Of a stretch of DNA of 64,000 nucleotides, positions 6,691-45,953 are shown piece by piece (the stretch's first letter is position 1; each line of letters starts with the position of its first letter). Position numbers and translations under genes: made by a program. A model generated the notes under the pieces. The model did not search any database and was not told the origin of the DNA. It was given only the letters and a program-made list of their open reading frames with translations. The DNA comes from Deltaproteobacteria bacterium (lineage in GTDB: Bacteria; Myxococcota; UBA727; JABDBI01): positions 106,446 through 170,445 of the forward strand of contig CP066680.1 of NCBI GenBank assembly GCA_016432245.1, given 5' to 3'.

Positions 6691-7632
6691 TTAAAGAGTG
6701 TATAAAAATACCTGGAAAATATGTTCCTTGGAGTAGGCAAGAGCTTTTGTATTCTTTTCCGCTTGTATAAGATGTTTCAGAATTTGTATTAAGGTTTTTG
6801 ATTTGAATTTGTTTGAAGGGTAGCGTTTTAGAGTGTTTGAAATTTTTGAGTTAAAAAAAGGATTTATTTTAGCTTGCAATAATGATTTGCAATGCCAGGT
6901 TAGAAGGGATAAGAGTGCGATGGAATTTTTAGGAATTGGAAAGGTACTTAATTGTCTAAGAGAGGATACGTATTGTCTGACAAGAAGAGAATCTAGGCAG
7001 TCTATGGCAGATGGAGTTTGGGTGGATGATTGGAGCATGTTGATAGGGGTTTCAAGTAACGAGTTCGACTCGTTGTGTGAGAAGTGTGGCGTGTCTAAAG
7101 TATTTCTTAATAGATCTAAATTATTTCCTATATTGCTTTGAATCATAGAAGAAATACTTGAACTTATTTGAATGTGAGCTGTTGAGGCTTCGGCTTTAAT
7201 TATTTGTATGGTTTCATATTTAGTTAGTTTGTTGAAGTTGAAGAGAGTGTTTGACATTGCAAGAGTTTCTATTATTTTTAATGGGTAACTTGTTTTTTTA
7301 AATAGAAAGACTAAAAGTGTTGTTTTTATAGGATTTTGAAGGTATTTTTGAAGTAAATCCAATTGATCTGAGCAAAAGGAGTTGGAAATCGGCGCAGCAA
7401 TTAATCGAAAATCAGATTGTATTGGTCTAAATTTGGCGGCATGGAGGATCTTTTCCATAGGAGAATTTTCATCTAAAAAATCATAATTGAATTCGACGTT
7501 ATTTGGCAGATATTTATTTTGCAGGTCTGTTATTGTTTTTTTAGTTAGAAAGCTACTTTGACAGAGTATGCCGATTACATTTGGAAGTGCCTTTAGTGAA
7601 AGCTTTTGTATCCATTCGGAGTATGATTTCAT
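6691..7632 (-). CDS. hypothetical protein, possibly DNA polymerase III delta subunit
   Basis: 313-aa uninterrupted ORF in an AT-rich background. Size and helical composition are compatible with HolA, but no diagnostic motif was recognised. Confidence 0.35.
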   Translation of the reverse strand: MKSYSEWIQKLSLKALPNVIGILCQSSFLTKKTITDLQNKYLPNNVEFNYDFLDENSPMEKILHAAKFRPIQSDFRLIAAPISNSFCSDQLDLLQKYLQNPIKTTLLVFLFKKTSYPLKIIETLAMSNTLFNFNKLTKYETIQIIKAEASTAHIQISSSISSMIQSNIGNNLDLLRNTLDTPHFSHNESNSLLETPINMLQSSTQTPSAIDCLDSLLVRQYVSSLRQLSTFPIPKNSIALLSLLTWHCKSLLQAKINPFFNSKISNTLKRYPSNKFKSKTLIQILKHLIQAEKNTKALAYSKEHIFQVFLYTL

Positions 7633-10098: not shown

Positions 10099-11499
10099 TT
10101 GTTTATGAAAAATTTAAATATAAATATAAATAAACGCAGTATTGCTATGGTTTTTGGAGTTTTGGTTGGCTTTATCGTAGGTGGAGTGACTATATGTTTT
10201 AATTTGCTTTGTGTAGAGAATTTTGTGTCTCAAAATGCAAAGTCTAGACTTAAAGAGCAGCATATAATAATAGAGAATCCACCAAATGTTTCTAATGTTA
10301 TTACGCGCAAGGAAAATGTGAAGGCGATTGTTAACTTAAGTGCAGTAAGAAAATCTTTTGTAATTAATTATTTAAGAGGAGGAGGGCTAGATCTTAATAA
10401 AAATATAGATAAAAACATAAAGATAGAAAAAGGATTGATGCATGGCTTAAAGAAAAAAGAAGAAATGGATAAAATAGACATCGTAAATGATTATAAGTGC
10501 ATAGATACGCATGCTTTTAATGGCACCATTCCAGGAGGGCTTATTCGGGTACTAGAGGGGGATGATGTAGAAATTCGTTTTTCGAATACATATTCAAACA
10601 ATAATTCCTATAGTCTAATTGTTGATATGGAAAATGTGCCGCCAATGAAAGAGGTGCAGGGCAGACAGGAGATTTCTGCATTTGTTAAAGAAAATGAATC
10701 GACGTTGTTGAGATTTAAAGCTAAAAGGCCAGGGCTTTATATGTATCTAGGAGGAGGGTCTGCAGAGACGCTTATCACGCCTGGCAGGACAGGGCCAAAT
10801 ATGGCTACAGATATTAGTGGCGGCATGTATGGAATGATCTTTGTTCAGCCTAAGGACTATAAGCGAGCAGATAGGGAATTTTATCTTATGAGATCAGAAT
10901 TGTATATTGGGCAGGGATATTCTGCGCTTCAGACAAAAAGAAAAATAAGAACTTTAAAGGAGATTGAGCGATTATATTTATCGTATTGTGGTTTTAAAAA
11001 TAATGGAAAGGGAAGGATAGGTGAGGATTGGAAAAGGCGAAGCGAAGCAGTCTCTGATAGGTATGAAATCAATCAATACACTTACTATAAATTTAGTCAG
11101 TTCAGAGAGGTATTAGAAAAGCCAATGGATGTAGGTTTCAATGGAAAATTAAACCAATATGCAGACGCTTTTCCTTTAATGGTTGTAAGGGATGAGACAG
11201 TGCGATTTTTCATTGGCAATGTAGGGCCTAATAACCCAGCGCAATTTCTAGTAAATGGAGGGGACAAACCTTCTTTAGTGTCAATTTATGCAGAAAAAGG
11301 CGATAGGAAAAGAGTTGAGCATGGGATGTATCTAGCGCCAGGTAGTGCAGTTATAATAGATGTCAGCTTTGGGGAAATCGGAGATTATTTTATTCAAGAT
11401 AGGAAGGATTTACTAGGATTAAGCGGTGCAAGGATGAAGGTGCGTGTTTATAAGGACAGAGTGGATTTATTATATAACTTGTTAGGAGCGCTGAAGTAA
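10099..11499 (+). CDS. hypothetical membrane-anchored protein with a cupredoxin-like segment
   Basis: 466 aa. It has an N-terminal TM helix. The HAFNGTIPGGLIRVLEGDDVEIRFSN segment resembles multicopper-oxidase/cupredoxin folds, but no HxH or Cys/Met copper ligands are present. Its stop overlaps the next start as TAATG. Confidence 0.5.
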   Translation: MFMKNLNININKRSIAMVFGVLVGFIVGGVTICFNLLCVENFVSQNAKSRLKEQHIIIENPPNVSNVITRKENVKAIVNLSAVRKSFVINYLRGGGLDLNKNIDKNIKIEKGLMHGLKKKEEMDKIDIVNDYKCIDTHAFNGTIPGGLIRVLEGDDVEIRFSNTYSNNNSYSLIVDMENVPPMKEVQGRQEISAFVKENESTLLRFKAKRPGLYMYLGGGSAETLITPGRTGPNMATDISGGMYGMIFVQPKDYKRADREFYLMRSELYIGQGYSALQTKRKIRTLKEIERLYLSYCGFKNNGKGRIGEDWKRRSEAVSDRYEINQYTYYKFSQFREVLEKPMDVGFNGKLNQYADAFPLMVVRDETVRFFIGNVGPNNPAQFLVNGGDKPSLVSIYAEKGDRKRVEHGMYLAPGSAVIIDVSFGEIGDYFIQDRKDLLGLSGARMKVRVYKDRVDLLYNLLGALK

Positions 11500-15454: not shown

Positions 15455-16493
15455 AAAAGGAAATACTTTGAAGAGATGGATAGGGGAGGAATATTATTGT
15501 TGGTATGGGAAAAGGGTTGCTTATATAGTGACTCTAAACGATATTAGACCTTCCAAAAGAGTATTTGAAGAATTTGGAATAAAATTAATTATCAGAACGA
15601 TTGAGTATTTGCTTAGTAAAGGGGCGTCTCTTATTCTGGTGCTGGAAAAATCTTGTATTATCAGTAAAGTGCAAAAAAGGGAACAGGATATTTTTTTTCA
15701 GCGTTTTTTTTATTGTCTTGGCAGAGTATTCGGTTATCGGCAATCAGGAAAATGGCTTATTGAAGAGGTTATATCAATTAATCGATTGATGCCTGGGCGT
15801 CTTCTTGTTATAAATACTTTTAGAAATGATTTAAAATTTATATTTTCCAAGACCCAAATTGATGTATTTGTATTTGAAGACTGGGCTACCTACAAATTAA
15901 TAAGGTCTAGTAGCAACTTTCAAAAGTATTTTTTTGGATTTTTACATTATAGCAAATCAAAATTTTTTCTTTTAAACTTTAGAAAGGAGAAAACTATATC
16001 TTTAATAGGAGCAGGATGCGATTTAAAGAAAAAGCAAATCTTAAAAAATCTTTTAGAGAGTAAAGTGTTATTAACTAGTGCAAATTGGTTAACTTGTATA
16101 AAGCGTGTGGACCAGGAGAATGAATATAGGCAGAGAATATTGATATCCATAGGTGATTATGAATTTATATATTCTGTTTGGCAAAAAATTTTGGAATTTC
16201 CAGTTTTAGTTTTTTCTCCTTGTGATTTTGTAAAAGTGCAAGAAATAATGACGAATGCTTTAATTTCCATTGTAGGAAAAGCTCCAAGTAATCTCAGTGC
16301 AGTAGTTGAAATAGGGCCAAGAACTATAATCTCATATAGGGAGATTGTGAGAGAATTTCAGTATATTTTATGGCATGATAGGCTTTATAAATTTAAAGAA
16401 AATTTCATTTCTTTGCATTGTGATGTTTTTTCGATTATATTTAAAAATAAAAGTGTATATCCAGTATATAGCTTTAATGAAAAAGTTAAGTGA
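15429..16493 (+). CDS. hypothetical protein (354 aa), unknown function
   Basis: Long uninterrupted ORF in AT-rich DNA with no recognisable motif. The real start may be internal, since the first 26 nt overlap rpmA. Confidence 0.4.
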
Positions 16494-16578: not shown

Positions 16579-17298
16579 ATGCAATTGTTTTCAAAGATAA
16601 CTAATGAAATTCCTAGAATAGCATTATTATGTCTTTTTATAGTATATCTTTGGTTGATCTTTCTCTTTTGGTTTTGGGGTTCACCATGGAACCTTGGTGT
16701 TGGATACAGGCCGATACAGCCGCAGGTATTTAGTCATAGTTTACATGCAGGAGAATTATCGATAAATTGTTATTATTGCCATAGCTATGCTTGTAAAGCT
16801 GAGATGGCAGGGTTGCCATCATTTTCCGTGTGTAAAGAATGTCATGATCTTTTAGTCCATAGTAATCATAACATTTGGAAGTCTTCTATAATGCAAGATT
16901 CAGATTTGAATAATATTTTTAATCTTTCAAAGAAAGGTTATGATTATAAAAATAGGTATTTTGAGATTTTAGGGCGTGGCTTTACAAAAATACAACTAAA
17001 AGAAAGCATTTTAAATGGATGGGGTTTCTTTTTGGATCACGGGCATTGGGTAAAAGTACACAAATTACCAGAATATGTTTATTTTAATCACAGTGCTCAT
17101 ATTAGAACAGGGATAGGATGTACAAATTGCCACGGGGAAATAAAAGAGATGGAAGAAGCGCAAACTGTACAACCACTTAGCATGAGATGGTGTATAGATT
17201 GTCATAGAAAACCAGTAATTTATCAAGAAGGTAGAAAATTTTTTATTAATGAAAGCGCAAATCCACCTATAACAGATTGTTATGGTTGTCATCGATGA
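16579..17298 (+). CDS. actA: Alternative Complex III subunit ActA (pentaheme cytochrome c)
   Basis: 239 aa. It has an N-terminal TM helix and five CxxCH motifs (CYYCH, CKECH, CTNCH, CIDCH, CYGCH). Confidence 0.8.
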   Translation: MQLFSKITNEIPRIALLCLFIVYLWLIFLFWFWGSPWNLGVGYRPIQPQVFSHSLHAGELSINCYYCHSYACKAEMAGLPSFSVCKECHDLLVHSNHNIWKSSIMQDSDLNNIFNLSKKGYDYKNRYFEILGRGFTKIQLKESILNGWGFFLDHGHWVKVHKLPEYVYFNHSAHIRTGIGCTNCHGEIKEMEEAQTVQPLSMRWCIDCHRKPVIYQEGRKFFINESANPPITDCYGCHR

Positions 17299-17315: not shown

Positions 17316-20300
17316 ATGACAGATAAAAACAGTAGTTTTGGGAATATTAGAAGGCGTACAATGTTGAAATTAATGGGATTAACATTTGCTCTTGTTAGTT
17401 TTAATATGGGGTGTCGACGCCGACAACCCATTAGAATGTTTCCTCGTAAAGAAATTGAAGGGACAGTAGAGGGGTGGACTCCAGGAGAATCCCTTTTTTT
17501 TAAGACAGCATATCCAGGAGAATGGGGGGCAATAGGGCTATCTGTGGAAACGCATGAGGGGAGACCGACAAAAATAGAGGGAAACAAAGTGCATTTTTCA
17601 AGCATGGGAACTGTGGGAATTCATGAACAGGCATCTTTACTTGAATTGTATGATGAAAAGAGATCAAAGGTCCCGATTAAAAAGATAAAAGGTGTTAGCG
17701 AGAGAGCAAAAACAACATGGACAGAGTGGATGCGGTTTCAAGAGGAGCATTTTTCTTGCTTAAAAGACGTGAAGGGAGAAGGACTTTGTTTTTTATTTGG
17801 ACCAGAAGATTCGATAACAAAAGGTAGGTTAATTAAACTTTTAGCAAGAGAATACCCGAAAGCATTGTTTTTTAAGCATGACCCATTATATCTTTTTAAT
17901 GAAGAGCAGGGGTTAAACCTTGTATATGGCAAAGAAAAATTAAGACTTATTTACGATTTAAGAAAAGCAAAAATAATTTTAAGCATACAAGCGGATCCAT
18001 TTATGCAGGCTCCACTGTCCTTAAAAAACGCTTATGATTATTCATTATTACGAAAGGCGCAGCTAAAAGAAGGAAGGCATCTTAGTCGGTTGTATTGTGT
18101 TGAGGCAAAGTATTCTGTAACGGCTTCAATAGCAGATCATCGAATATCTTTGTCAATAGCAGATAGCATAAGTTTTTTAAAGATACTTTCCTGGGAAATA
18201 TTTCCTGAATTAAAAAATGAGAGAGATCAACTAACAGAATTAGACGCATATAGGGATTTTATAAGTGGACTATCTCGGGATCTGAAGGAAAACATGAAAG
18301 AATCTCTTATTATTATAGGAGAATTAATGCCGCCAGAGGCACATGCAATGGTAGCGGTGTTAAATGAAAAACTAGGTGGGAGAGGACATACATATAGAAT
18401 ACTCGATGCAGGTGAGGCTTCTTTAGCAGAAAAGGTTAATGCGGAAGAAGTGATTGTGGACAAAAATTGTAAAAAGCTAGAAGAATCTATAAAAAAAGGA
18501 AGGGTAAAAACCTTAGTTGTTGTCAATTCTAATCCAATTTATTTAACCTCTAAAAAGACTAACTTGCAAGGTTTGTTTCAGCAGGTTAATACGATTATCT
18601 GTGCTGGAATTTACGAAGATGAGACTGCAGCCTTGTCAGATTGGCATTTGCCACTTTCTCATTATCTTGAAGATTGGGGAGATACGAGAGATTATAGTGG
18701 CCTAGTATTAATTAGACAGCCAGTTTTACAAGAGTCACTGTATGATACGCGATCAGAATATGAATTTTTATATAAAATATTAGAAGCAGGAAATAATAAA
18801 GCATTTTTCCCACATGGTTCGGAAAAAGCACTAGATTTAGTGTTAGAAACGTATTTGCAGGAGAATACAAGTGATTCATTTGATATCGCATTGATTAGGG
18901 GGTTTTGGGGCAGAGAATTTCCAGTGTATTTGGAAAAAATGAAAAATAGCAATTTTTTTCTCAAAAGTTTAGATAATAAAAAGTCGGTAGAAGTTATTTT
19001 AGAATGGGATTATAAAGTTTTAGATGGTCGTTTTTCTAATATAAATTGGCTTCAAGAGTTAGAAGATCCGATAACTAAAGTTACATGGGGGAATGTTGCT
19101 TTAATTAGTAAAAGCTTGGCTGTGGAGTACGGGATTGAAAATATAAGAAGCCTCGTCTCTACGCGGGTAGATGTTGTATCTATTGTATCAGAGGGAAATA
19201 ATATTGAGATACCTGCACTCATAATGCCTGGTGTAGCACAGAATAGTATTATAGTTCCTATCGGCTATGGAAGAGGAGCAGCAGACTCTAGCTTGGTCAT
19301 AGGAGAGAATGCGTATAAGATTATGTCAAGTACAGGTGGCCGTGTTCTTTATGATATTCAATTATTAAAAACGGGAAGGGTAGAAGAATTAGCTATTACA
19401 GACAAGTATTTTGCAGAAAATGCAGATAAGATTAAGGAAGATGATGTTTTGATCTTAAAAAATTATAAGCCAGTTTTATGGGAAGATTTTGATAATGTAA
19501 AGAATAAAGAGCATACAAGCAAGCATAGTAAGTCTTTATATAACAAATGGCCTTATGAAGGAGGCAATAAATGGGGTATGGTCATAGATTTAAATTCATG
19601 TATAGGGTGTCAGTCTTGTGTCATTTCTTGTAGAGCTGAAAACAATATTCCAATTGTTGGAAAAGATCAGATTAAAGCTAGAAGAGATATGAGTTGGTTA
19701 AGAGTTGATCGTTACTTTGTAGGAGATGTAAAGAATCCTTTAAGTTTTTCGCAACCAGTTCCATGCATGCATTGCGAGCAGGCTCCTTGTGAACCAAGTT
19801 GTCCAACTTCAGCAGTTGTTCATACGCCAGAAGGGTTAAACACTATGATCTATAATAGGTGTAGTGGCACGAGATTCTGTGCGGCAAGTTGTCCATATAA
19901 AGTTAGAAAGTTTAATTATTTTGATTATTCACAAAGTGCAGATGTTTTTCCCGATATTGGAGAGGAAAAAGTACAGTCATTGAGTAAAATGCAGAGGAAT
20001 CCAGAAGTGAGCGTTAGATATAGAGGAGTTATGGAGAAATGTACATATTGTGTTCAGAGAATTGTTAAAGGAAAGAATCGAGCGACACAAATGGGGTTTG
20101 ATTCGAATTTTATGCAAGATGAGACGCTTAAAATTGAACCGGCATGTGCTCAGGTATGTCCGACAAGGGCGATTTCATTTGGAAACCTAAATGACTTGAA
20201 ATCTGAAGTGGCATTAGATAAGGGTGATCAGCGCAATTATGAGCCATTAATTGGAAAAAATTTAAGCCCTAGAACTACTTATTTATATCGCGTGTTGAAT

Positions 20301-20339
20301 AGAAGTCATTTAGTGAAGGAGATTAAAAACGATGGTTGA
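17316..20339 (+). CDS. actB: Alternative Complex III subunit ActB (fused molybdopterin-oxidoreductase-like and 4Fe-4S ferredoxin domains)
   Basis: 1007 aa. It has a twin-arginine signal ([12 protein letters not shown]). The C-terminal region contains four Cys clusters ([46 protein letters not shown]). Confidence 0.8.
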
Positions 20340-21729
20340 AAAAAAAATTCATATAGGAGATGTTGTATTTCCTAATATTCCAGGTGAAAGAGATGAATTT
20401 ATCAGGGGAGGGGTTTCTTATGGTGATGTAACAAATTTAGTGTGTAGAATGCCAGAGTTAAAATTGGGAGAAGAGCCAAAATGGTGGAAAATAGCATTTG
20501 GGATTTCCATATTAGGTGTTTTTCTTTTTTTCTCTTCTGTTTTTTGCGTTATTTGGTTTGGCATTGGAATGTGGGGAAACAATAATCCTGTTTTTTGGGC
20601 GTGGGATATTGTTAACTTCGTTTTTTGGGTTGGGATAGGGCACGCTGGTACTTTAATATCAGCTATTTTGTTCTTATTTAGACAAAAATGGAGAACTTCG
20701 ATTAATAGATACGCAGAAGCAATGACAATTTTTGCAGTAATATGTGCAGCTTGTTTTCCAGTGTTTCATATGGGAAGAGTTTGGACAGCTCATTTTTTAG
20801 CACCAATACCTAATCAGATGGGCATGTGGCCGAATTTTCGATCTCCTTTGTTATGGGATGTATTTGCTGTTAGTACATATTTTACAATCTCATTGCTTTT
20901 TTGGTATGTTGGGTTAATTCCAGATTTAGCAACATTAAGAGATAGGGCCAAAGGGACTTTGGGAAAGAAAATATATGGGTTCTTTTCTCTTGGATGGAGA
21001 GGATCGGTTAAGGATTGGTATATCTATGAGAAGGCATATTTATTTTTAGCAGCATTATCAACACCATTAGTGTTATCGGTTCATAGTGTGGTTTCGTTTG
21101 ACTTTGCAACTTCACAGCTTTCAGGATGGCATACTACGATTTTTCCACCATATTTTGTTGCAGGTGCTATCCTATCTGGGTTTGCAATGGTGCAGACGTT
21201 AATTATACCAGCACGTATTTGGCTCGATCTAAAAAATCTAATAACAATTCAGCATATTGAAAATATGAACAAAGTTATATTATTAACTTCTAATATGGTA
21301 GGATATGCGTATGGAATAGAATTTTTCATTGCTTGGTATAGCAAGGATCTTGAAGAATTTCAACTTTTTATACATAGAGCCACAGGCTGGTATGCATGGG
21401 CATATTGGACAATGGTTATTTGCAATGTTGTTATTCCTCAATTGTTTTGGATGCGTAGAATCCGCACAAGTATATTTCTAACTTTTATAATGTCTATTGC
21501 AATAAATATAGGAATGTGGTTTGAAAGATTTGTTATTATTGTAACATCTTTGAGTCAGGGAAATGTTCCTTCTTCATGGAGTTATTATAGTCCAAGAATA
21601 TGGGATGTTTTTTTGTTTATAGGTTCTTTTGGACTGTTTTTCTTTTTATTTTTGCTTTTCATTCGATTTTTACCAGTGGTAGCAATGGCAGAGGTAAAGG
21701 GGGTAATGAAGGGCGGTCACTGCAAATAG
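20332..21729 (+). CDS. actC: Alternative Complex III subunit ActC (NrfD/PsrC-like polytopic membrane quinol-interacting subunit)
   Basis: 465 aa, very hydrophobic with ~10 predicted helices. It overlaps the actB stop by 8 nt. Confidence 0.75.
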
Positions 21730-21743
21730 GAAAGGGAGTATTT

Positions 21744-22292
21744 ATGAATAATATATATGGAATGTTAGCTGAATATGAAGATCAGGGAACCATTTTTGAG
21801 GGATTAACAAAAATTCGATCTTTAGGTTATAAGAAGATAGATATATTTAGTCCATTTCCTATTCATGGGATGGAAGAAATGTTCATGGGTAAAAGCTTAA
21901 AGCGACAATCTCGTAAATTATCTAACACTGTATTTGGATTTGGGATGGTAGGGTTTTTAGCTATTTTTGGTTTAATTACTTGGGTATCTGTTTTTAATTA
22001 TCCTTTAAACATCGGAGGTCGACCTTTGATGAGTTTTCCAGCTTTTATTCCACCAATGTTTGAAATTACAATTTTATTTAGTGGGATAACTACAGTGATT
22101 ACGATGCTTTATTTAAATGGGTTACCTAAGTGGCATAATCCATTATTTAATTCTGTTAAGTTTAAGAGAGTCACAGATGACCGTTTTTTCTTATTAATAT
22201 ATGCAACAGATTGTCGTTTTAATAGTACACAAACACAGATTGATTTAATGAAAAGTAATGCCTTAAGCGTTGAGGTAATATTAAAGGATTGA
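21744..22292 (+). CDS. actD: Alternative Complex III subunit ActD
   Basis: Start reassigned to the ATG at 21744 (MNNIYGMLAEYEDQGTIFEGLTKIRSLGYKKIDIFSPFPIHGMEE). It is an ActD/DUF3341-like N-terminus followed by TM helices. Confidence 0.65.
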   Translation: MNNIYGMLAEYEDQGTIFEGLTKIRSLGYKKIDIFSPFPIHGMEEMFMGKSLKRQSRKLSNTVFGFGMVGFLAIFGLITWVSVFNYPLNIGGRPLMSFPAFIPPMFEITILFSGITTVITMLYLNGLPKWHNPLFNSVKFKRVTDDRFFLLIYATDCRFNSTQTQIDLMKSNALSVEVILKD

Positions 22293-24529
22293 AAATGAAT
22301 ACAATTGAATTTTTTATAAAAAAATTTCTAATATTTTTTTTTCTAATATTTTTTTTTCTAGTAATTTTTTCTGGAGTTTTTGGCAGGGGTTTCATTTCAA
22401 GACATGCTCCAATTTTACTTCAACAGAATATGTTTATACAGGAGAAAGTTGTACCGTACACTCAGGTCTATAACAAACATTTTTTGAAAAATTCTCATTT
22501 AAACAGAAATTTTCCGATAGAATTATTCGAAGATGAGATTCCGATTAGTGATGAAAATTGGCTTTCTACAGGACTTGTAACATATAAGAATAATTGTCAA
22601 ATTTGTCATGGAAAAGCGGGTAGTGGTTTTCCTTTGAATTTTGATCTTCAAATCACACCACCACCGCTCTTAGACCTTCAATCGCTAAAGGAAGTTGATA
22701 TATTTAAAAAGATTAAGCATCATAAGTATGGAGTAATGCCAAGCTTTAAGAATCAATTACAAGCTAGAGAGGCATGGGCTGTTGCATATTACATAAAAAA
22801 TGAGCATTTGCAAAAGGAGATATCATCAATATTAAATGAATTAAAAACTAAGGGATTATTTTATAATGATTTGTTACAGACGCCGAATAATTATTTTGAA
22901 AAGTTATTTTTTTTCAATTTGCTTTATGATTGCGTTTTTTACAATGAATATTTCACAGACTCTTTTTTATTAAATGTTTCGAATTTAGCTTATGCAATAT
23001 TGGATCCAAATTTTGAGTTATCTTTTGAATCTTTTTATGAGATGTTGTCACAGGAAGAAATTACAGATGAAGATTTAAATTTTATTCTGTTAAGGATAAA
23101 AGAAAAATTAATAAGGGAGCGACAAATATATGATATGTTTTCAAATCATGTGGGAAATCCTTATTTTGGAAAAGTAAATAACCTATTTATAACTACAGAG
23201 TTTAATAGAGAAATTTATAATAATTTATTGACAAAGTTGTTGTTTTTGCGTTTTTCTGAAGAGCATAATAATGCAAAGGTTGATAAAATTACTATGTGTA
23301 CAATTAAATCTGAAAATCTTGGAAATAAGCTATATGGTTCGGAAAATCTTTTAAATAAATACCTTCATTCTAGATTGAAAAGTAAGGGAGATAAATTATT
23401 TGTAGCTTTAAATCAATCGTTATTTTTTTTAAATAATAAGGTAGCAGAATTAGAAAACTCTATAAATGGATTGAAAAGAGAATTAGAAGATGATAAATAT
23501 ATATTAGTAGAAAAATGCCCGTTAATTTATAAAGATTTTTTTATAAACATTTATAATTCACAATTAAAAGATTTAACTTCAAAAATAAATAATCAAAACG
23601 ATGATTCGAAAGCAAGGAAGATAATGTTAGAGATAGATAAAGTAAAAGAAACTATCGAAACACGGAAAACACAGATTGAAACCGGCCAAGTATATGACAT
23701 GTTTTATAACGTAGAAATGTCGTATGAAGATTTTGGCCTTATTTTATTGAAAAAGATTATCAGTTATGAGACTTTAGTTAAGAAATACAACATAAGTCTT
23801 GCCAACAAAAAGAACTTTTTTGATTTGGATTTTCTCAATGTAGGTTTGATTCATGATATTGATAAGAAGAATTTAGATTTAATAATTGAAAAGAGACAGG
23901 ATGTTGAAATGATCTCCTTAAATAGGGAAATGCTTGATTATCAATTATTTATTCAAGAATTACAGCAAGAATTTGAAGAAATATTAAGAGACATAGATGA
24001 TTTGAAAGGCATTTTAGACAAAATTCGTACTAAAGGAGCGAAGATTCATACAATAAACACCTCATTTTTGCAAAAAGACTATATGCAATTATATATGTTA
24101 AAAAATAAATTAAATGATCTTCAGTGCTTATTGATATATAAAAAAGATTTAAATGAAGTAGAAATGTTAGGATTGCAAGGGAGTTTTTTTGCTTTTGATT
24201 GGTATCTTGAGGACATTAAACCTAGTATATTAGATCAAAATAAGGAAGAAAAAATGTTAATGCGTAAATATAGAGAATTACTAGAAAAGTTAAAGTATAA
24301 GAAAATATTATTAGGGATATCAATTCAGGAAAGAGAAGTGCGAGCGAAATATTCCCAAGATAGTATGAGTAAATTAATTCAATTATGTGCAATGCTATTA
24401 ACAGAATTGAAGAAGGATCAAGAGAAAGTACGAAGCTATCTTGAATACATATCTGAAAGTGATGTTAAAATTACATATGATTTCATGGGACATTTAACAA
24501 AGTCATGCATGATAAAGGCGGGATTCTAA
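22289..24529 (+). CDS. actE: Alternative Complex III subunit ActE (monoheme cytochrome c) fused to a ~560-aa coiled-coil-like C-terminal extension
   Basis: 746-aa uninterrupted ORF. It has an N-terminal TM helix, a single CQICHGK heme motif and a distal Met segment (KYGVMPSF) within the first ~180 aa. The remaining ~560 aa are K/E/L/N-rich heptad-like sequence with no stop codons. It overlaps actD as ATGA, and actF begins 2 nt after its stop. Confidence 0.7.
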   Translation: MKMNTIEFFIKKFLIFFFLIFFFLVIFSGVFGRGFISRHAPILLQQNMFIQEKVVPYTQVYNKHFLKNSHLNRNFPIELFEDEIPISDENWLSTGLVTYKNNCQICHGKAGSGFPLNFDLQITPPPLLDLQSLKEVDIFKKIKHHKYGVMPSFKNQLQAREAWAVAYYIKNEHLQKEISSILNELKTKGLFYNDLLQTPNNYFEKLFFFNLLYDCVFYNEYFTDSFLLNVSNLAYAILDPNFELSFESFYEMLSQEEITDEDLNFILLRIKEKLIRERQIYDMFSNHVGNPYFGKVNNLFITTEFNREIYNNLLTKLLFLRFSEEHNNAKVDKITMCTIKSENLGNKLYGSENLLNKYLHSRLKSKGDKLFVALNQSLFFLNNKVAELENSINGLKRELEDDKYILVEKCPLIYKDFFINIYNSQLKDLTSKINNQNDDSKARKIMLEIDKVKETIETRKTQIETGQVYDMFYNVEMSYEDFGLILLKKIISYETLVKKYNISLANKKNFFDLDFLNVGLIHDIDKKNLDLIIEKRQDVEMISLNREMLDYQLFIQELQQEFEEILRDIDDLKGILDKIRTKGAKIHTINTSFLQKDYMQLYMLKNKLNDLQCLLIYKKDLNEVEMLGLQGSFFAFDWYLEDIKPSILDQNKEEKMLMRKYRELLEKLKYKKILLGISIQEREVRAKYSQDSMSKLIQLCAMLLTELKKDQEKVRSYLEYISESDVKITYDFMGHLTKSCMIKAGF

Positions 24530-24530
24530 T

Positions 24531-25787
24531 ATGATAATGGCTTTATATCGTTTATATCCACCGTCAGAAGCGGAGATGAGAATTCGCCTTCGTCGGCATG
24601 GGCGTACACGGCGACCACAACCATATGAAAATTTGTTTCAAGTTACACCAACTACGGTCAAGAGGGATTCATTTTTAATGCTTTTAAGTATGTTGTTCTT
24701 AACCTATTGGATTATATGTTGGATATCCATACCAACAAGGGCGTCCTTTGGCTATCTTTTTGCATTTATATCTATGTTGACATGTGTACTTGGATCTTCT
24801 TTTTTTGTTTTAATTCAACATGCAGTAAGAGCAGGATGGTCCGTAATAGCACGGCGAAGTGCTGAATTTATCATGGAAACTGTATCTTTGTTTGCGATTT
24901 TATTTTTACTTGTTGTTATTAACATGAAGGACTTATATATATGGACAGATCCATCATGTAATTTTGAATTGGCGTCAATTGGGATGTTTTATTTGAATAA
25001 TGTTTTCTGGATTATAAGAGGAATTGGGTACTTTTTAGTTTGGATTATTTCTTCAAAATATATTTGCCAAAAATCATTCAATCAAGATCAGGCAAAAAAT
25101 GATTCATTATCTATAACAATGCAAAAAGCAAGTTATATTTTCTTGTTATTATATGCATATACGACATCTTTTGCCTCCTTTGATTGGGTGATGTCTTTAC
25201 AGCCACATTGGTTTTCATCAATTTTTGGTATTTATTTTTTTGCAACTTGTTTTTTAACAGGGTTGGCAAGTATTTGCTTTATATTTTTATTAACAAGGGT
25301 TCCTTCAAATACAAATCATATGTATGATTTTGGAAAATTGTTATTTGGATTTACTATATTTTGGACATATATAGCATTTAGTCAATTTATGCTAATATGG
25401 TATAGTGATCTTCCGGAAGAAATTGGTTTTTATACTACCAGGTCTAACACGGAAGAGTGGTGGAGAATGTCTTTTTATTTAATATTTTTTAATTTTATAG
25501 TTCCATTTTTCTTTTTAATAAGGAAAGATAACAAATGGCATTATGGACCAATCTTTTTTATGTCAATGTGGACTTTGTTTTTTCAATTTATACACATTTA
25601 TTGGTTAATAATGCCAATCTTAGGTGAGGAAAAATGGTGGTATTCCCTAGATTGTGATTTTTCTGCAATGATGATTGTTATGGCCTTATTTATAAGGAAA
25701 ATTATTCGATCATGTAGAAAGTACGAATTATATCCTAAAAATGATCCATTTTTAGAAGAATCCTTGAAATGTGAGAAAATTCATTAA
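24531..25787 (+). CDS. actF: Alternative Complex III subunit ActF (second NrfD-like membrane subunit)
   Basis: 418 aa polytopic membrane protein, paralogous in character to ActC, in the canonical actABCDEF order. Confidence 0.65.
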   Translation: MIMALYRLYPPSEAEMRIRLRRHGRTRRPQPYENLFQVTPTTVKRDSFLMLLSMLFLTYWIICWISIPTRASFGYLFAFISMLTCVLGSSFFVLIQHAVRAGWSVIARRSAEFIMETVSLFAILFLLVVINMKDLYIWTDPSCNFELASIGMFYLNNVFWIIRGIGYFLVWIISSKYICQKSFNQDQAKNDSLSITMQKASYIFLLLYAYTTSFASFDWVMSLQPHWFSSIFGIYFFATCFLTGLASICFIFLLTRVPSNTNHMYDFGKLLFGFTIFWTYIAFSQFMLIWYSDLPEEIGFYTTRSNTEEWWRMSFYLIFFNFIVPFFFLIRKDNKWHYGPIFFMSMWTLFFQFIHIYWLIMPILGEEKWWYSLDCDFSAMMIVMALFIRKIIRSCRKYELYPKNDPFLEESLKCEKIH

Positions 25788-25792
25788 AAAAG

Positions 25793-26860
25793 ATGCTTGA
25801 GCTTGAAATCCTTTATACTTTTTTAGTTACTTTAATCGTATTTATCACTGTATTTTTATTTGTTTCAATTTCTTCATATATAGTGGCTTACTATTTGTTA
25901 AAATCATTTATCGAGTGGTTTTGTGAATATATGCACTCAAATGTCGAGGATTTTGATAAAAGTATTTTATTAGCAATATTTGGCCCTGTTCGTATGGGGT
26001 TAGCTTTTTTAGTGGTGTTCTTATTAGCGTACTGTATAAGTATGTTGCATATTTATTTGCCTTTATTACAAGAAATTGCAAGTCTTTTATTCTTTTTTGT
26101 AACAACATGGTTTCTTTTCGATTTGATAAATTTAGGATTTTCATGGCTAAATCAATTTTATAGTAAAAGAGGGCAAATCGAAATTGTTTTGCTGATTCCA
26201 TTATGGCGTCGCATAGTAAAAGGAGTTATTATAATATTTGTTATTTTATTTTTTTTGCAAAATAGTGGAGTTCAGATAACCGCTTTACTAGCAGGATTGG
26301 GTGTTGGAGGCATTGCCATTGCACTAGGAGCTCAAAAGGCCATAGGAGATTTTATAGGTGGATTAATATTGGTTTTTGATAGGCCAATTAAAATTGGTGA
26401 TGAGTGCAGGTTTTATGATAAACATGGATATATAGAATCTATAGGGCTTAGAAGTGTAAGAGTAAGAACGCCTGAAAAGACCTTATTGATTATTCCAAAT
26501 TCAGATTTTTCCCAGGGAAGGATTGAAAATGTTTCAGAAAGAGATAGAATATTGTTTAAAAGTTTAATTTCTGTACATCAAAATACTACCTTAAAAAAAA
26601 TTCAATGTTTGCTTTTAGAGTTTGAGCAGCTTTTATACAATTCTTCATACACATGTAAAGAGAAAATAAGGGTAACGTTAATTGGATTTAGTAAAAATTC
26701 TTTTGATATAGAGATTCAAGCATATGTATTAACAAATAATTATACAGAATTTTTATCAATGCAAGAAAATTTATTAATGGATTTAATGAATAAAATAAAG
26801 AAATTGAAAATCAATTTAGCTATTCCAATTGTGGAAAATATAGAATCCTTATCTAGTTGA
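25793..26860 (+). CDS. MscS-family small-conductance mechanosensitive channel
   Basis: 355 aa. It has N-terminal TM helices, then the conserved MscS pore/beta-domain region (GLGVGGIAIALGAQKAIGDFIGGLILVFDRPIKIGD). It starts 5 nt after actF. Confidence 0.7.
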   Translation: MLELEILYTFLVTLIVFITVFLFVSISSYIVAYYLLKSFIEWFCEYMHSNVEDFDKSILLAIFGPVRMGLAFLVVFLLAYCISMLHIYLPLLQEIASLLFFFVTTWFLFDLINLGFSWLNQFYSKRGQIEIVLLIPLWRRIVKGVIIIFVILFFLQNSGVQITALLAGLGVGGIAIALGAQKAIGDFIGGLILVFDRPIKIGDECRFYDKHGYIESIGLRSVRVRTPEKTLLIIPNSDFSQGRIENVSERDRILFKSLISVHQNTTLKKIQCLLLEFEQLLYNSSYTCKEKIRVTLIGFSKNSFDIEIQAYVLTNNYTEFLSMQENLLMDLMNKIKKLKINLAIPIVENIESLSS

Positions 26861-28211: not shown

Positions 28212-28622
28212 TTATCTTGATTTTGAAATTATAAATACTCCAATTTGTTTACCATGAGGAGTATTATTTAAAAAATTTGAAAAAAAAATACCGTTTGTTG
28301 ATCCTGTAAATTTTAGAAAAACTTCTAAGGGCAAATTGTTATGAAATCCAATGACTTCTTTCAAAATTAAGTGCCCGTCCTTATACAAATAGAGTCCAAT
28401 GCTTTGTTGCATTCCTGATATATTTGAAATTTCATATTGGTTTCGTGATATAAATTTTAAAATAAATTGACTACCTTCAAATTCAGAGAAATAACCAGTG
28501 TTAGAAATTGATATTCCTTTAATTAATTTACCTGTGAGCTCATGATAAAGATGAGGATGTTTATTATAAAAGAAGGAATCTAAAAGAACTAAAAAAAGTA
28601 ATAAGAGTAAAACATATTTCAT
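28212..28622 (-). CDS. hypothetical secreted protein
   Basis: 136 aa. It has an N-terminal hydrophobic signal-like segment (MKYVLLLLLFLVLL) and sits between thrS and ruvX with 1-17 nt spacers. Confidence 0.4.
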   Translation of the reverse strand: MKYVLLLLLFLVLLDSFFYNKHPHLYHELTGKLIKGISISNTGYFSEFEGSQFILKFISRNQYEISNISGMQQSIGLYLYKDGHLILKEVIGFHNNLPLEVFLKFTGSTNGIFFSNFLNNTPHGKQIGVFIISKSR

Positions 28623-42746: not shown

Positions 42747-43988
42747 ATGAATAATAATTTTAAAAATCAATATTTATTAGTGTTGGATTTGTTAAGATTA
42801 GAGCATTTAAGACAGTTAAATACTCTAAATTTGATTGCAAGTGAAAATTTCGTATCAAAGCCTATATTGCAAGCCATTGGAAGCTCTGTTGTGAATAAGT
42901 ATGCAGAAGGCTACCCTAGTAAGAGGTATTATGCAGGTTGTGAAAATATCGATGCAGTCGAAAAAGAAGCCATAGGACGTGCTAAGGATTTATTTCAAGC
43001 GGAGCATGTGAATGTTCAACCGCACTCAGGTACAAATGCTAATTTAGCAGTATATTTAGCTGCAATAAGACCAGGAGATAAAGTTTTGGCCATGAAATTA
43101 AATCATGGGGGGCATTTAAGTCATGGGTCAAAAATGGGCATGGCAGGTATGATTTATAAGTTTGTTTTTTATGGGGTTAATGATGAAACAGGGTACATTG
43201 ATTATAGTGAGCTTGAAAAGATAGCTATTCAAGAAAAGCCTCAAATTATCCTAGTAGGGGCCTCTGCGTATCCCAGGGTCATTGATTTTGAAAGGATTGC
43301 ATTTATATGCAAGAAGGTAAATGCCAAATTTTGGGTTGATATGGCGCATATTGCTGGACTTGTTGCTTCTGGGATGCATATATCACCTATTCCATACGCC
43401 GATTTTATTACTAGCACTACGCATAAAACGTTAAGGGGCCCAAGAGGCGGTTTAATTTTGTGCAAGAAAGAATATGGACAAAAGGTGGATTCAAGTGTCT
43501 TTCCGGGAGTACAGGGAGGTCCCTTGATGAATATGATTGCGGGTAAGGCAATATGCTTTGGGGAAGCTATGTGTAAGGAATTTCGAGATTATCAGAAGAA
43601 AGTTTTAGAAAATGCACAGGCGTTGGCTTGTCAATTTGCATTAGAACGATTTGAAATGCAAACTAATGGTACAGATACTCATCTAATTTTGCTAAATATA
43701 GGCAGATACAGACATGATGCAAGTAAAGCTGAAGAGGAATTGTCTAAAATAAGAATTGTTGTTAATCGAAATTTAATGCCAAACCAGAAGAGAATGGGAA
43801 TTAGGCTTGGAAGTGCAGCAATTAGTACACAGGGCTTTGGAGTTATAGAATCAGCTTTTATTTCACACTTAATAGGCCAGGCTTTAATGCATAAAAGAGA
43901 TATTTCTCTTTATTCAAGAGTTTTGAAATTGATAGATAGACGCCTATTGAGTGTGGAATTTGATGAGTTATCTAGTTTTCTGATATAA
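42747..43988 (+). CDS. glyA: serine hydroxymethyltransferase
   Basis: 413 aa. It has the PLP-lysine region (TTHKTLRGPRGG) and GGHLSHG. Confidence 0.9.
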   Translation: MNNNFKNQYLLVLDLLRLEHLRQLNTLNLIASENFVSKPILQAIGSSVVNKYAEGYPSKRYYAGCENIDAVEKEAIGRAKDLFQAEHVNVQPHSGTNANLAVYLAAIRPGDKVLAMKLNHGGHLSHGSKMGMAGMIYKFVFYGVNDETGYIDYSELEKIAIQEKPQIILVGASAYPRVIDFERIAFICKKVNAKFWVDMAHIAGLVASGMHISPIPYADFITSTTHKTLRGPRGGLILCKKEYGQKVDSSVFPGVQGGPLMNMIAGKAICFGEAMCKEFRDYQKKVLENAQALACQFALERFEMQTNGTDTHLILLNIGRYRHDASKAEEELSKIRIVVNRNLMPNQKRMGIRLGSAAISTQGFGVIESAFISHLIGQALMHKRDISLYSRVLKLIDRRLLSVEFDELSSFLI

Positions 43989-45051
43989 TGATTTGCACAA
44001 ACTTGTGTAAATCTATTTTCCCGTTCCATTTTTTTGGAATGAGATTTATTCGCTTTCCTATTTTAGAAGGAGTGTTTTGGTTTAATATGATTAATTCGGG
44101 AAGCCCAATCACTTTAAATGTTTTAGCGATTTCTTCATTTAAAGAGGCAAATGAAAGATCTACCTGGATTAATTCATAGTTGTATTTTTTGAGGATGGAG
44201 AGAAATTCCATATTGTGAAGAATCTCTTCATGTAGTTGCATGCAAGATTCGCACCAGGAGGCGCCAAAGCTTAACAGTATTTTCTTGTTGCTTTTTTTTG
44301 CATCTTTTATTTTGCTAATAACCTCTCGATATGTATCATCCTTCGCAGAAGATTGGTAGCTTTCAAAGGCATGAAATGCATCAAGTGAATATATTGTTAC
44401 AGACCAAAGCATTGTTAAGCTCATAAATAGTTTTATGTAATCAAGCCATACGCCGGTGCGTGGCATCTTTTTAAATGAAGACTGAAAAAAGCCAAGAAGC
44501 ATATAGGGAATGGCTATACCTAGGCAGTAGAAAAAAAGAAGAATAGAGCCCTTTACAAATTCATTATTTAATGCTATTAGTGATAAAATGTTTGCAAGTG
44601 CTGGGCCAGTACATGGTAAAGAAGATGTGCAGGTGACAATTCCTGATAAAAAGATTGTCCAAGCACCGTTTGTTTTTTTTGTAGACATATTTAGTAAAGT
44701 AGAAGGGATGCGTACAGCAGCTTCTTCTGAGAAAAAAGCTAAGTATCCATTAATTGCGATTAGCAAGCATGGCATGAACGGGCCTTGGAAGAGATTTCTA
44801 CTAGTAATTCCTGCAAATGCGAAAATCGCAGCAACAAAAAAATTTACAAGGCAAATTCCAAGCGTAAAGATTGTAAATATATAAACTGTTTTTGATCTAG
44901 TTGTACACTGGGCGGCGATGACGGAGATGGCAGATGCCAAAAGCGGAATCAAGGGGTAAATGCAGGGAGCTAGTATCGTGCTTAGTCCAGAATAAAAACT
45001 ATAAACAATTAAGCCAACATTAAATGAGTCATTTATCATATAATTCTCCAA
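43972..45051 (-). CDS. CcdA/DsbD-family thiol-disulfide transporter fused to a C-terminal thioredoxin domain
   Basis: 359 aa. It has two membrane Cys motifs (ILAPCIYPLIP, SLPCTGPALA) and a C-terminal CxxC thioredoxin (FGASWCESC). Confidence 0.65.
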   Translation of the reverse strand: MENYMINDSFNVGLIVYSFYSGLSTILAPCIYPLIPLLASAISVIAAQCTTRSKTVYIFTIFTLGICLVNFFVAAIFAFAGITSRNLFQGPFMPCLLIAINGYLAFFSEEAAVRIPSTLLNMSTKKTNGAWTIFLSGIVTCTSSLPCTGPALANILSLIALNNEFVKGSILLFFYCLGIAIPYMLLGFFQSSFKKMPRTGVWLDYIKLFMSLTMLWSVTIYSLDAFHAFESYQSSAKDDTYREVISKIKDAKKSNKKILLSFGASWCESCMQLHEEILHNMEFLSILKKYNYELIQVDLSFASLNEEIAKTFKVIGLPELIILNQNTPSKIGKRINLIPKKWNGKIDLHKFVQIIISEN

Positions 45052-45113: not shown

Positions 45114-45953
45114 TTAGCCATAAAATTCCATTTTTATTTTATTTTTTGGGATTTTGCATGAAGTAAGAATAAATGATATAAATTCTACAAATTTGGAAGG
45201 AAGTGCAATTCCAAGTTTATTGCTTCTTCTTTTTTCCCATCTATTATTAGATGCTCCACATACAAAAATAGCAATAACGTTATTGTTTATGACATATTGT
45301 GAAATTATTTTTGTCAAATCGTTTTTCGAAAAATTAAAATTTTCTTTAGTATAGATATTAAGCATTTTGAATCTTTTAGGGTATAAAGACTCTAGTTTTT
45401 GTAAAGTTGAAAAAAACAATGTATTTTTCAGTGTTTTATTTATATAAATTAATATATGTTGTGTGGTGGCAAGTCGGTTTTGAAACAAATCGTATTTTAA
45501 AATAGAAAGACTTGGAATGATTCCTGATCCAGAAATAATATGAATAATACAGGAATTGGCAGGAACATTTAAAGGTAACATATAATTTCCACTATATTCA
45601 GAAAAATAAATGTACCTATTTTTCATAAAAGAAGAAGCTAAGAAAGGAGAAAGCATCGGAGGGTATTCAGTTTCTTTTCTAAAGTTTTCAATTTTAATAG
45701 TAAGAATAATAAAAGACTCTAATGGGCTGGAGAGGAGAGAGTAAGCCCTAGCGCTTTCTTTTCTTTTTTTTATTTGTTCAAAAAATAATAATGTATCTGA
45801 CAATTCTTGAAATTGATATGGATCAATCGAGATAAATTGGCCAGCTATGTATCTTTTGTGTTTAGTTAAAATTTCAATGTATAGGGAAAATATATTAGCA
45901 GACTCTTTTATAACTTCCTTAACAAGACCTTTATTTAAGTTTTTTCTGAGCAT
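45114..45953 (-). CDS. FNR-family FAD/NAD(P)-binding oxidoreductase (ferredoxin/flavodoxin reductase-like)
   Basis: 279 aa. It has an RxYS FAD motif (ARAYSLLSS), a glycine-rich NAD(P) site (ISGSGIIPSLS), a FVCG motif and a C-terminal aromatic (EFYG). Confidence 0.45.
   Translation of the reverse strand: MLRKNLNKGLVKEVIKESANIFSLYIEILTKHKRYIAGQFISIDPYQFQELSDTLLFFEQIKKRKESARAYSLLSSPLESFIILTIKIENFRKETEYPPMLSPFLASSFMKNRYIYFSEYSGNYMLPLNVPANSCIIHIISGSGIIPSLSILKYDLFQNRLATTQHILIYINKTLKNTLFFSTLQKLESLYPKRFKMLNIYTKENFNFSKNDLTKIISQYVINNNVIAIFVCGASNNRWEKRRSNKLGIALPSKFVEFISFILTSCKIPKNKIKMEFYG

Follow-up and report, generated by a model that had tools for sequence, protein, structure and literature searches.

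We analysed a 64,000-nucleotide stretch of DNA (hereafter the window) from a Deltaproteobacteria bacterium (GenBank assembly GCA_016432245.1, contig CP066680.1, positions 106,446 to 170,445 of the forward strand). Our subject is its actE gene, which codes for the subunit of Alternative Complex III (ACIII) that is a monoheme cytochrome c. Among alternatives to the bc1 complex, ACIII is the principal one; how it passes electrons on to its acceptors is still debated, and ActE has been proposed as its exit heme. In the assembled genome there is one actE gene, not two, and it is 744 codons long, 3-4 times the usual length. Sequence comparison identifies residues 1-174 as a divergent ActE, and the 570 residues that follow have no detectable relative. 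It is highly probable that this is a real gene with a translated, periplasmic orphan domain. On balance, and with much less assurance, we favor the fuller explanation that the gene is real and that its tail has been selected as a periplasmic accessory or docking module. The architecture of a membrane anchor, an ActE heme domain and a predicted helical orphan domain is unique among the ACIII loci and protein databases searched. We see in this protein a variant of a subunit already known rather than a new type of system.

The long reading frame and its operon

The base composition of positions 22817-24526 gives a stop probability of 0.10 per codon, from which 570 codons free of stops would arise by chance with a probability of ~6e-27; stops number 27-75 in the other five frames. 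The original prediction, made from the letters of this DNA, had called the ~560 codons left open beyond the ActE part striking, and this figure bears it out. We also trained a codon model on 19 Pfam-confirmed housekeeping genes of the window. With this model, the in-frame log-odds of the extension are positive in all six 285-nt slices (0.15-0.29 per codon) and the off-frames are clearly negative, while the neighboring genes score 0.14 (actA), 0.14 (actF) and 0.24 (actD) per codon. The fraction of G+C at third codon positions (GC3) is 0.24 in the extension and 0.22-0.27 in the neighbors, so the region is native and not recently imported; the lower overall GC of the extension is due to codon positions 1 and 2 (GC1 and GC2) and so reflects its amino-acid composition. 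Because the composition predicts a high density of stops, we infer that the frame has been kept open by selection. In addition, the Logan assembly of run SRR12113422 matches the window exactly over 20,890 bases, although the source reads are probably shared by both assemblies. The same protein is called on the Logan contig and is annotated at NCBI as 'MAG: cytochrome c [Deltaproteobacteria bacterium]', MAG standing for metagenome-assembled genome.

A different explanation is that two genes are being read as one, i.e., that an actE of ~180 amino acids (aa) and an orphan gene of ~560 aa were merged in the metagenome assembly through an error in the consensus or through strain heterogeneity at a stop codon. 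The genome is a MAG, both assemblies probably come from the same reads, and where DNA is rich in AT, a single substitution turns many of the sense codons into a stop. However, two different assemblers gave an identical sequence over 20.9 kb. The first in-frame ATG past the heme domain is at residue 250, and no motif resembling a Shine-Dalgarno (SD) sequence precedes the candidate starts at residues 172-260. There is no intergenic-like gap, the coding statistics are continuous over the junction, and none of 75 comparator ACIII loci has a gene between actE and actF. We consider the two-gene explanation highly improbable. The open frame, the codon signal, the identical second assembly and the lack of an SD-plus-start relic near the junction all support one gene, and the earlier claim that the frame is not an assembly join of two genes stands.

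The frame lies in a full actABCDEF operon, in the order actA-actB-actC-actD-[long frame]-actF, as seen both with Pfam and in gene calls on the independent assembly. The features of this region are as follows.

16579..17298, + strand: actA, pentaheme cytochrome c, 239 aa with five CXXCH motifs (Pfam Cytochrome_C7 / CIII matches)
17316..20339, + strand: actB, molybdopterin-like / FeS subunit, 1007 aa (Pfam Molybdopterin and Fer4)
20332..21729, + strand: actC, NrfD-like quinol-binding membrane subunit, 465 aa (Pfam NrfD, 1.8e-22)
21744..22292, + strand: actD, 182 aa, stop codon TGA at 22290-22292 (Pfam ActD, PF11821, 1.6e-52; also a 182-aa call on the Logan contig)
22284..22288, + strand: Shine-Dalgarno-like AAGGA, 6 nt upstream of the actE ATG (read from the sequence)
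22295..24529, + strand: actE, 744 codons plus stop, 88.3 kDa; anchor, monoheme cytochrome c and orphan extension
22325..22381, + strand: hydrophobic anchor of ActE, F11-F29; the 19-residue Kyte-Doolittle mean reaches 3.0, in this segment alone
22568..22795, + strand: class I cytochrome c domain of ActE (PF13442), with CQICH at 22595-22609 and the axial Met148 at 22736-22738
22817..24526, + strand: orphan C-terminal extension, residues 175-744, 570 aa, 67.8 kDa, isoelectric point 5.5
23390..23518, + strand: heptad-like segment 1, residues 366-408 (28-residue heptad scan against 200 shuffles)
23942..24064, + strand: heptad-like segment 2, residues 550-590 (heptad scan against 200 shuffles), within the longest predicted helix
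24531..25787, + strand: actF, 418 aa, locus tag HYS16_00665, 39-49% identical to many ActF homologs
25793..26860, + strand: mscS-like channel gene (Pfam MS_channel), directly 3' of actF

The frame that ends at 24529 has 746 codons if counted from a TTG at 22289 and 744 if counted from the ATG at 22295. The ATG, with AAGGA 6 nt upstream, is the likely start. The junction of actD and actE reads TGA-AA-ATG and leaves a gap of 2 nt, so the ATGA overlap of the original prediction does not exist; it is the upstream TTG alone that overlaps the actD stop, as TTGA. The two genes are not one frame, since TGA ends actD and the actE ATG is in a different register. On the other side, the spacer between actE and actF is 1 nt (TAA at 24527-24529, T, ATG at 24531) and not the 2 nt first given. 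From the actD stop to the actF start there are 2,238 bp in the window compared with at most 866 bp in the comparator loci. A scan for promoters and terminators told little in DNA so rich in AT: promoter-like sites numbered 56 against 62 expected, and no terminator-like site lay within actE.

The ActE part and its counterparts in other loci

The N-terminal ~175 residues are recognized as ActE, as first proposed, by their position between actD and actF, by one heme c motif with a Met ligand, and by their best relatives in the PDB, which are ActE chains. With Pfam, the only domain found in the whole frame is the cytochrome c domain at residues ~92-167 (PF13442, 1.6e-10). The best PDB matches of residues 1-192 are the ActE of Rhodothermus marinus (6f0k_E, 209 aa, 3.6e-6) and that of F. 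johnsoniae (6btm_E, 162 aa, 1.3e-3); the similarity is weak, and a word-index homology search with residues 1-192 alone gave no match. One hydrophobic anchor (F11-F29), a single CQICH (residues 101-105) and a conserved Met148 are present, in line with the earlier description. In an alignment with the ActE of seven relatives, the conserved positions include R31-G32, C101, C104, H105 and M148, and the last four are invariant. The homology stops at the C-terminal helix AYYIKNEH (~residue 172), and the relatives end 0-25 residues further on.

The heme domain is 22-31% identical to those of the relatives, which share 39-76% among themselves. Against the nearest clade, identity is 68-70% for ActC, 43-44% for ActB (over ~1000 aa), 43-48% for ActD, 42-45% for ActF and 34-36% for ActA; ActC is 58-70% identical to the ActC of 80+ genomes. 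By these comparisons, the ActE heme domain has evolved fast in this lineage yet stays intact. A cytochrome c biogenesis gene of the CcdA/DsbD type also lies in the window (43972-45051).

The anchor has changed as well. Lipidation at Cys24 has been proposed for R. marinus ActE (PMC5928083), and F. johnsoniae ActE is described as lipid-anchored (PMC8552683). All seven aligned relatives have the lipobox cysteine (G-C-R-G in six of them, A-C-G-R-G in L049). The window protein reads SGVFGRG at this place, against SGCRG in relatives, has no cysteine before residue 101, and has the 19-residue hydrophobic stretch F11-F29 in place of the lipoprotein anchor. This stretch is coded by a 15-nt tandem repeat in three copies at 22325-22369, namely tttctaatatttttt twice and then tttctagtaattttt, which translate to FLIFF-FLIFF-FLVIF. 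The sequence points to a lipoprotein signal peptide having turned into a signal-anchor; attachment to the membrane as such is retained. The window protein shares with the ActE of solved ACIII structures the actD-actF position, one CXXCH together with its Met ligand, and attachment to the membrane at the N-terminus, but its anchor is a long hydrophobic stretch where the ActE of R. marinus and F. johnsoniae have a lipobox cysteine.

The larger difference is length. A separate ActE, between 166 and 307 aa long (median 218), is found in 51 of the 75 comparator loci, with the same gene order actD-actE-actF. Judged by ActF (41-45% identity), the four nearest relatives are Myxococcota-labelled MAGs of 43-49% GC, and their ActE proteins have 165-176 aa. 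Together with the 162-209 aa of the solved chains, these lengths agree with the ~20 kDa that the original prediction gave for known ActE. Known ActE proteins end shortly after the C-terminal helix of the heme domain, whereas the window protein, at 744 aa, continues for 570 aa beyond this last conserved helix as an orphan domain. An extension of this type occurs in none of the 75 loci.

Other departures from the simple ActE are found among the comparators. In 18 of the 75 loci, ActD and ActE are fused (L004, L008, L010, L021, L023, L024, L028, L039, L041, L046, L048, L052, L055, L060, L067, L070, L074 and L075), with a total length of 377-565 aa and an ActE part of at most 388 aa. These fusions come from Planctomycetota (e.g., L004, Pirellula sp., and L052, Pirellulaceae), some Ignavibacteriota and others. 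They likewise place ActE in a longer polypeptide and so indicate that ActE tolerates covalent additions. However, they add a known membrane subunit, ActD, at the N-terminus, while the addition in the window is C-terminal and unlike any known protein. In the longest fusion, L052, which is the one examined closely, the heme domain ends ~30 residues before the stop and the extra length is N-terminal to it. The longest stand-alone ActE among the comparators, that of Archangium sp. (L020; 307 aa with two CXXCH), is an example of length variation in the family. Its extra length carries a second heme-binding motif, whereas the tail in the window lacks this motif and is nearly double the length of the entire Archangium protein. 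ActE is absent from 6 of the 75 loci (L025, L026, L035, L042, L044 and L069), where actD stands directly before actF. By these counts, no other ACIII subunit of the comparators is as plastic as ActE.

The orphan extension

Relatives of the extension were sought widely. An exhaustive phmmer search of the tail against 1.84e9 representative proteins and a word-index search of 5.8e9 protein clusters with the full protein each returned the protein itself as the sole match. In Pfam and NCBIfam, searched at lenient thresholds with the tail and three overlapping pieces of it, only sub-threshold coiled-coil noise was seen, and we rejected the matches to DUF7841 (0.0027), MutS_III and DASH_Dad1 as such. 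Against PDB sequences at E <= 10 there was one match, yktB (0.14), which we regard as due to chance. No relative was found in JGI metagenome DNA, tblastn of the extension on 80+ ACIII loci gave no match, and the 64-kb window holds no paralog of the tail elsewhere. Within the reach of these searches, the extension is an orphan and lineage-specific.

The extension is rich in Leu, Lys, Glu, Ile, Asn, Asp, Phe and Tyr, which agrees with the K/E/N/L/I-rich composition first described. It is poor in Ala, in Pro (0.9% compared with 3.2% in housekeeping proteins) and in Gly (3.0% compared with 5.8%), and it has six Cys but no CXXCH. No transmembrane segment was found in it; the maximum 19-residue Kyte-Doolittle mean is 0.9. 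Since there is no membrane segment and a c-type heme domain precedes the extension, it must, on sequence grounds, be periplasmic.

AlphaFold2 models made from the single sequence have a predicted local distance difference test (pLDDT) score of 37 for the whole protein and 42 for the tail. Both are all-helix by DSSP, at low confidence. The predicted helices are 8-25 residues long up to ~residue 400 and 26-58 residues long in the C-terminal half; the first ~200 residues of the extension are aromatic-rich and have short predicted helices. The modeling suggested in the original prediction thus yields an all-helical C-terminal part, but at pLDDT 37-42 it does not allow a fold to be assigned.

Strong 28-residue heptad windows take in 15% of the extension (a lax cut-off raises this to 31%) and lie at residues 366-408 and 550-590. 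In 200 shuffled versions, the strong cover is 0.8% +/- 2%, with a maximum of 11%. The heptad-like character that had been predicted is therefore present in two segments that exceed the shuffles, but not as a continuous coiled coil of ~560 residues. By its heptads the tail does not fit the class of long coiled-coil / tether proteins: the periodicity does not extend over most of its length and is confined to two segments of ~40 residues, outside which there are short helices or stretches rich in aromatic residues. The tail is better described as one or more large, predicted alpha-helical domains with a few coiled-coil-like stretches. A Q[IV]YDMF motif recurs in the extension, but BLASTP self-comparison and shuffled Smith-Waterman alignment gave no significant internal repeats (z <= 3.4).

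One contig may hold a counterpart. The closest ActF, P0003 (49% identity; the sister lineage), lies on a 2.9-kb (2,932-bp) contig in ENA (ERZ27297709). This ActF and that of the window (residues 1-~55, 24531-24700) share derived features, among them a charged N-terminal tail of 45-60 residues that is absent in other ActF proteins. The gene 5' of the P0003 actF is at least 477 aa long, is truncated where the contig ends and, as in the window, terminates 1 nt before actF. Possibly it codes for an extended ActE that has diverged, in which case the tail would be old and would have been selected. A scan of JGI data with a clade-specific ActF peptide pattern found two unrelated contigs of higher GC, L087, which has a normal ActE of 172 aa, and L088, which is cut off.

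Possible roles of the extension

This single, real actE gene is very probably translated within the actABCDEF operon, across tight junctions of 1-2 nt. Its product begins with what is probably an uncleaved or late-cleaved hydrophobic signal-anchor in place of the lipoprotein cysteine. An intact but fast-evolving monoheme cytochrome c domain comes next, located by homology at the periplasmic end of the ActA heme wire. The lineage-specific domain of 570 residues, predicted to be all-alpha with two or more short coiled-coil-like stretches, must then follow the heme domain into the periplasm. There, at the outer, exposed face of ActE, the tail could serve as an accessory or docking module, and may hold or select an electron acceptor, or organize the complex. 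It may have arisen by fusion with an orphan gene or by gradual accretion. Taken by itself, the accessory or docking function is an analogy, and we propose it tentatively, as a suggestion that may well prove wrong.

The analogy is with R. marinus ACIII, where ActH, a three-helix bundle, adjoins ActE, and a periplasmic subunit that has not been assigned lies above ActE (PMC5928083). We regard an accessory or docking module as the most economical reading of the tail because ActE carries the distal heme and adjoins ActH and the unassigned density in R. marinus. R. marinus ActE donates electrons to the caa3 oxidase (PMC5928083). The original prediction had also offered the tail as a tether or scaffold, for supercomplexes or for anchoring to the cell envelope. 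The supercomplex scaffold is without precedent; the ACIII-aa3 supercomplex of F. johnsoniae, the only one structurally characterized, is held by contacts through the membrane oxidase subunit III and not through ActE (PMC8361435).

A more specific version of our preferred explanation is that the tail is a built-in replacement of ActH, or else of the unassigned subunit that Rhodothermus has in the periplasm above ActE. These subunits are helical, periplasmic and free of cofactors, and they sit beside or above ActE; the tail is predicted to be alike, with helices of 26-58 residues. However, those subunits are small proteins in their own right, with genes that lie outside the act cluster, whereas the tail is covalently attached. 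ActH consists of three helices of ~30 residues and about 50 further residues (PMC5928083), and the tail is several times larger. The tail has no sequence similarity to any PDB chain at E <= 10, the ACIII entries included, and its model (pLDDT 42) is too poor for a fold comparison. We think such a replacement very unlikely.

Changes in the neighboring genes also bear on the accessory or docking module. Three of the four nearest relatives have, directly behind actF, a cluster made up of an 85-aa gene, SCO1, COX2 (which carries a cytochrome c domain), COX1, COX3 and COX4, with an MscS-like gene behind the cluster (cox cluster at 9124-13850 in L082, 9124-13827 in L084 and 7119-11834 in L085). The fourth shares this cox cluster but lacks the mscS behind it. 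In the window, the orthologous mscS begins 5 nt after actF (gap 25788-25792), and its product is 38% identical to the MscS behind the cox cluster in L082. Neither cox genes nor remnants of them were detected in the 64-kb window or within the tail. In this lineage, a remodelled anchor, a fast-evolving heme domain and the absence of adjacent oxidase genes go together. The docking reading fits a lineage in which the caa3 oxidase genes are gone from the locus and the ActE anchor is remodelled. In a bolder form, the tail would be an ancient, selected and fast-evolving periplasmic domain common to the sister lineage, a helical arm of ~68 kDa on the terminal heme subunit that captures a non-canonical acceptor or ties ACIII to a component of the envelope. 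Such an arm would replace the genomic and physical coupling to the caa3 oxidase seen in the relatives. We regard this form as improbable.

The main rival to a selected module is that the tail is neutral or hitch-hiking baggage, i.e., an orphan periplasmic protein or de novo sequence that may have fused to a dispensable and weakly constrained subunit and is translated without a role in ACIII. It could persist through the export signal and expression of ActE, or because selection is too weak to purge it in an AT-rich, streamlined lineage. Several observations are consistent with this. ActE is non-essential in F. johnsoniae (PMC8552683). Its absence from 6 and its different fusion in 18 of the 75 loci mark it as the most plastic ACIII subunit, and in the window its heme domain is the most diverged act product (22-26% identity, compared with 34-36% for ActA and 42-70% for the others). 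The tail is a singleton with an amino-acid composition driven by AT content and with low GC1 and GC2. On the other hand, at a stop probability of ~0.10 per codon an unselected frame of 570 codons would soon be broken, and codon usage along the full tail is as good as in conserved genes. The sister lineage may also have a long gene 5' of actF. In addition, the other housekeeping proteins of the window (IF-2, NusA, ArgRS, RF-1, ThrRS, TopA, DnaX, GatB, PBP1, GyrB, DnaG, RpoD and ATP synthase) are of ordinary length. Thus, the tail is not part of a general tendency of proteins to lengthen, and there is no genome-wide accretion of tails. We consider baggage unlikely, though it is to be taken seriously.

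The following points weigh against a selected accessory module. GC at codon positions 1 and 2 of the extension is 0.34 and 0.20, compared with 0.45 and 0.36 in actB, which fits weak constraint. Since the tail has no homolog, the evidence for selection comes from the open frame and codon usage alone. The gene of at least 477 aa before the P0003 actF may instead be an ActD-ActE fusion, and phmmer of the tail against the 1.84e9 representatives did not match it. The AlphaFold2 models are unreliable (pLDDT 37 and 42), and a Foldseek search of the PDB with the poor tail model gave no match (E > 0.3, template-modeling score < 0.2). No sequence match of the tail to ActH or any other ACIII chain in the PDB (6F0K/6BTM) was found at E <= 10. 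Furthermore, F. johnsoniae ActE is dispensable for electron transfer to aa3 (PMC8552683), so the subunit may simply tolerate baggage.

An ActE with a 68-kDa extra module on its exit domain would be a natural experiment on what ActE is for. This applies above all to a lineage in which the anchor of ActE is altered as well and the neighboring oxidase genes are gone. It is also a case of a large orphan domain maintained on a core respiratory subunit, and it is known from one uncultured genome.

The window as a whole has 31.5% GC, compared with 42-49% in the nearest ACIII relatives, nine tRNA genes and densely packed housekeeping genes. Its sequence suggests that the host is a streamlined, AT-rich and deeply branching Myxococcota-like lineage. 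Several other sizeable open reading frames have no Pfam match at E <= 1e-5 (6691-7632, - strand; 10099-11499, + strand; 45114-45953, - strand; 28212-28622, - strand), so this genome has orphan proteins in more than isolated cases; by tblastn, none of these frames resembles the ActE tail. A further open reading frame of 341 aa (15468-16493, + strand), 85 nt upstream of actA, codes for a short and very divergent phosphoglycerate-kinase-like protein. No Pfam family is above threshold for it (PGK scores 18 bits against a cut-off of 27), and its residues 14-310 match residues 13-323 of the 394 of PDB entry 1php_A with an E value of 6e-6.

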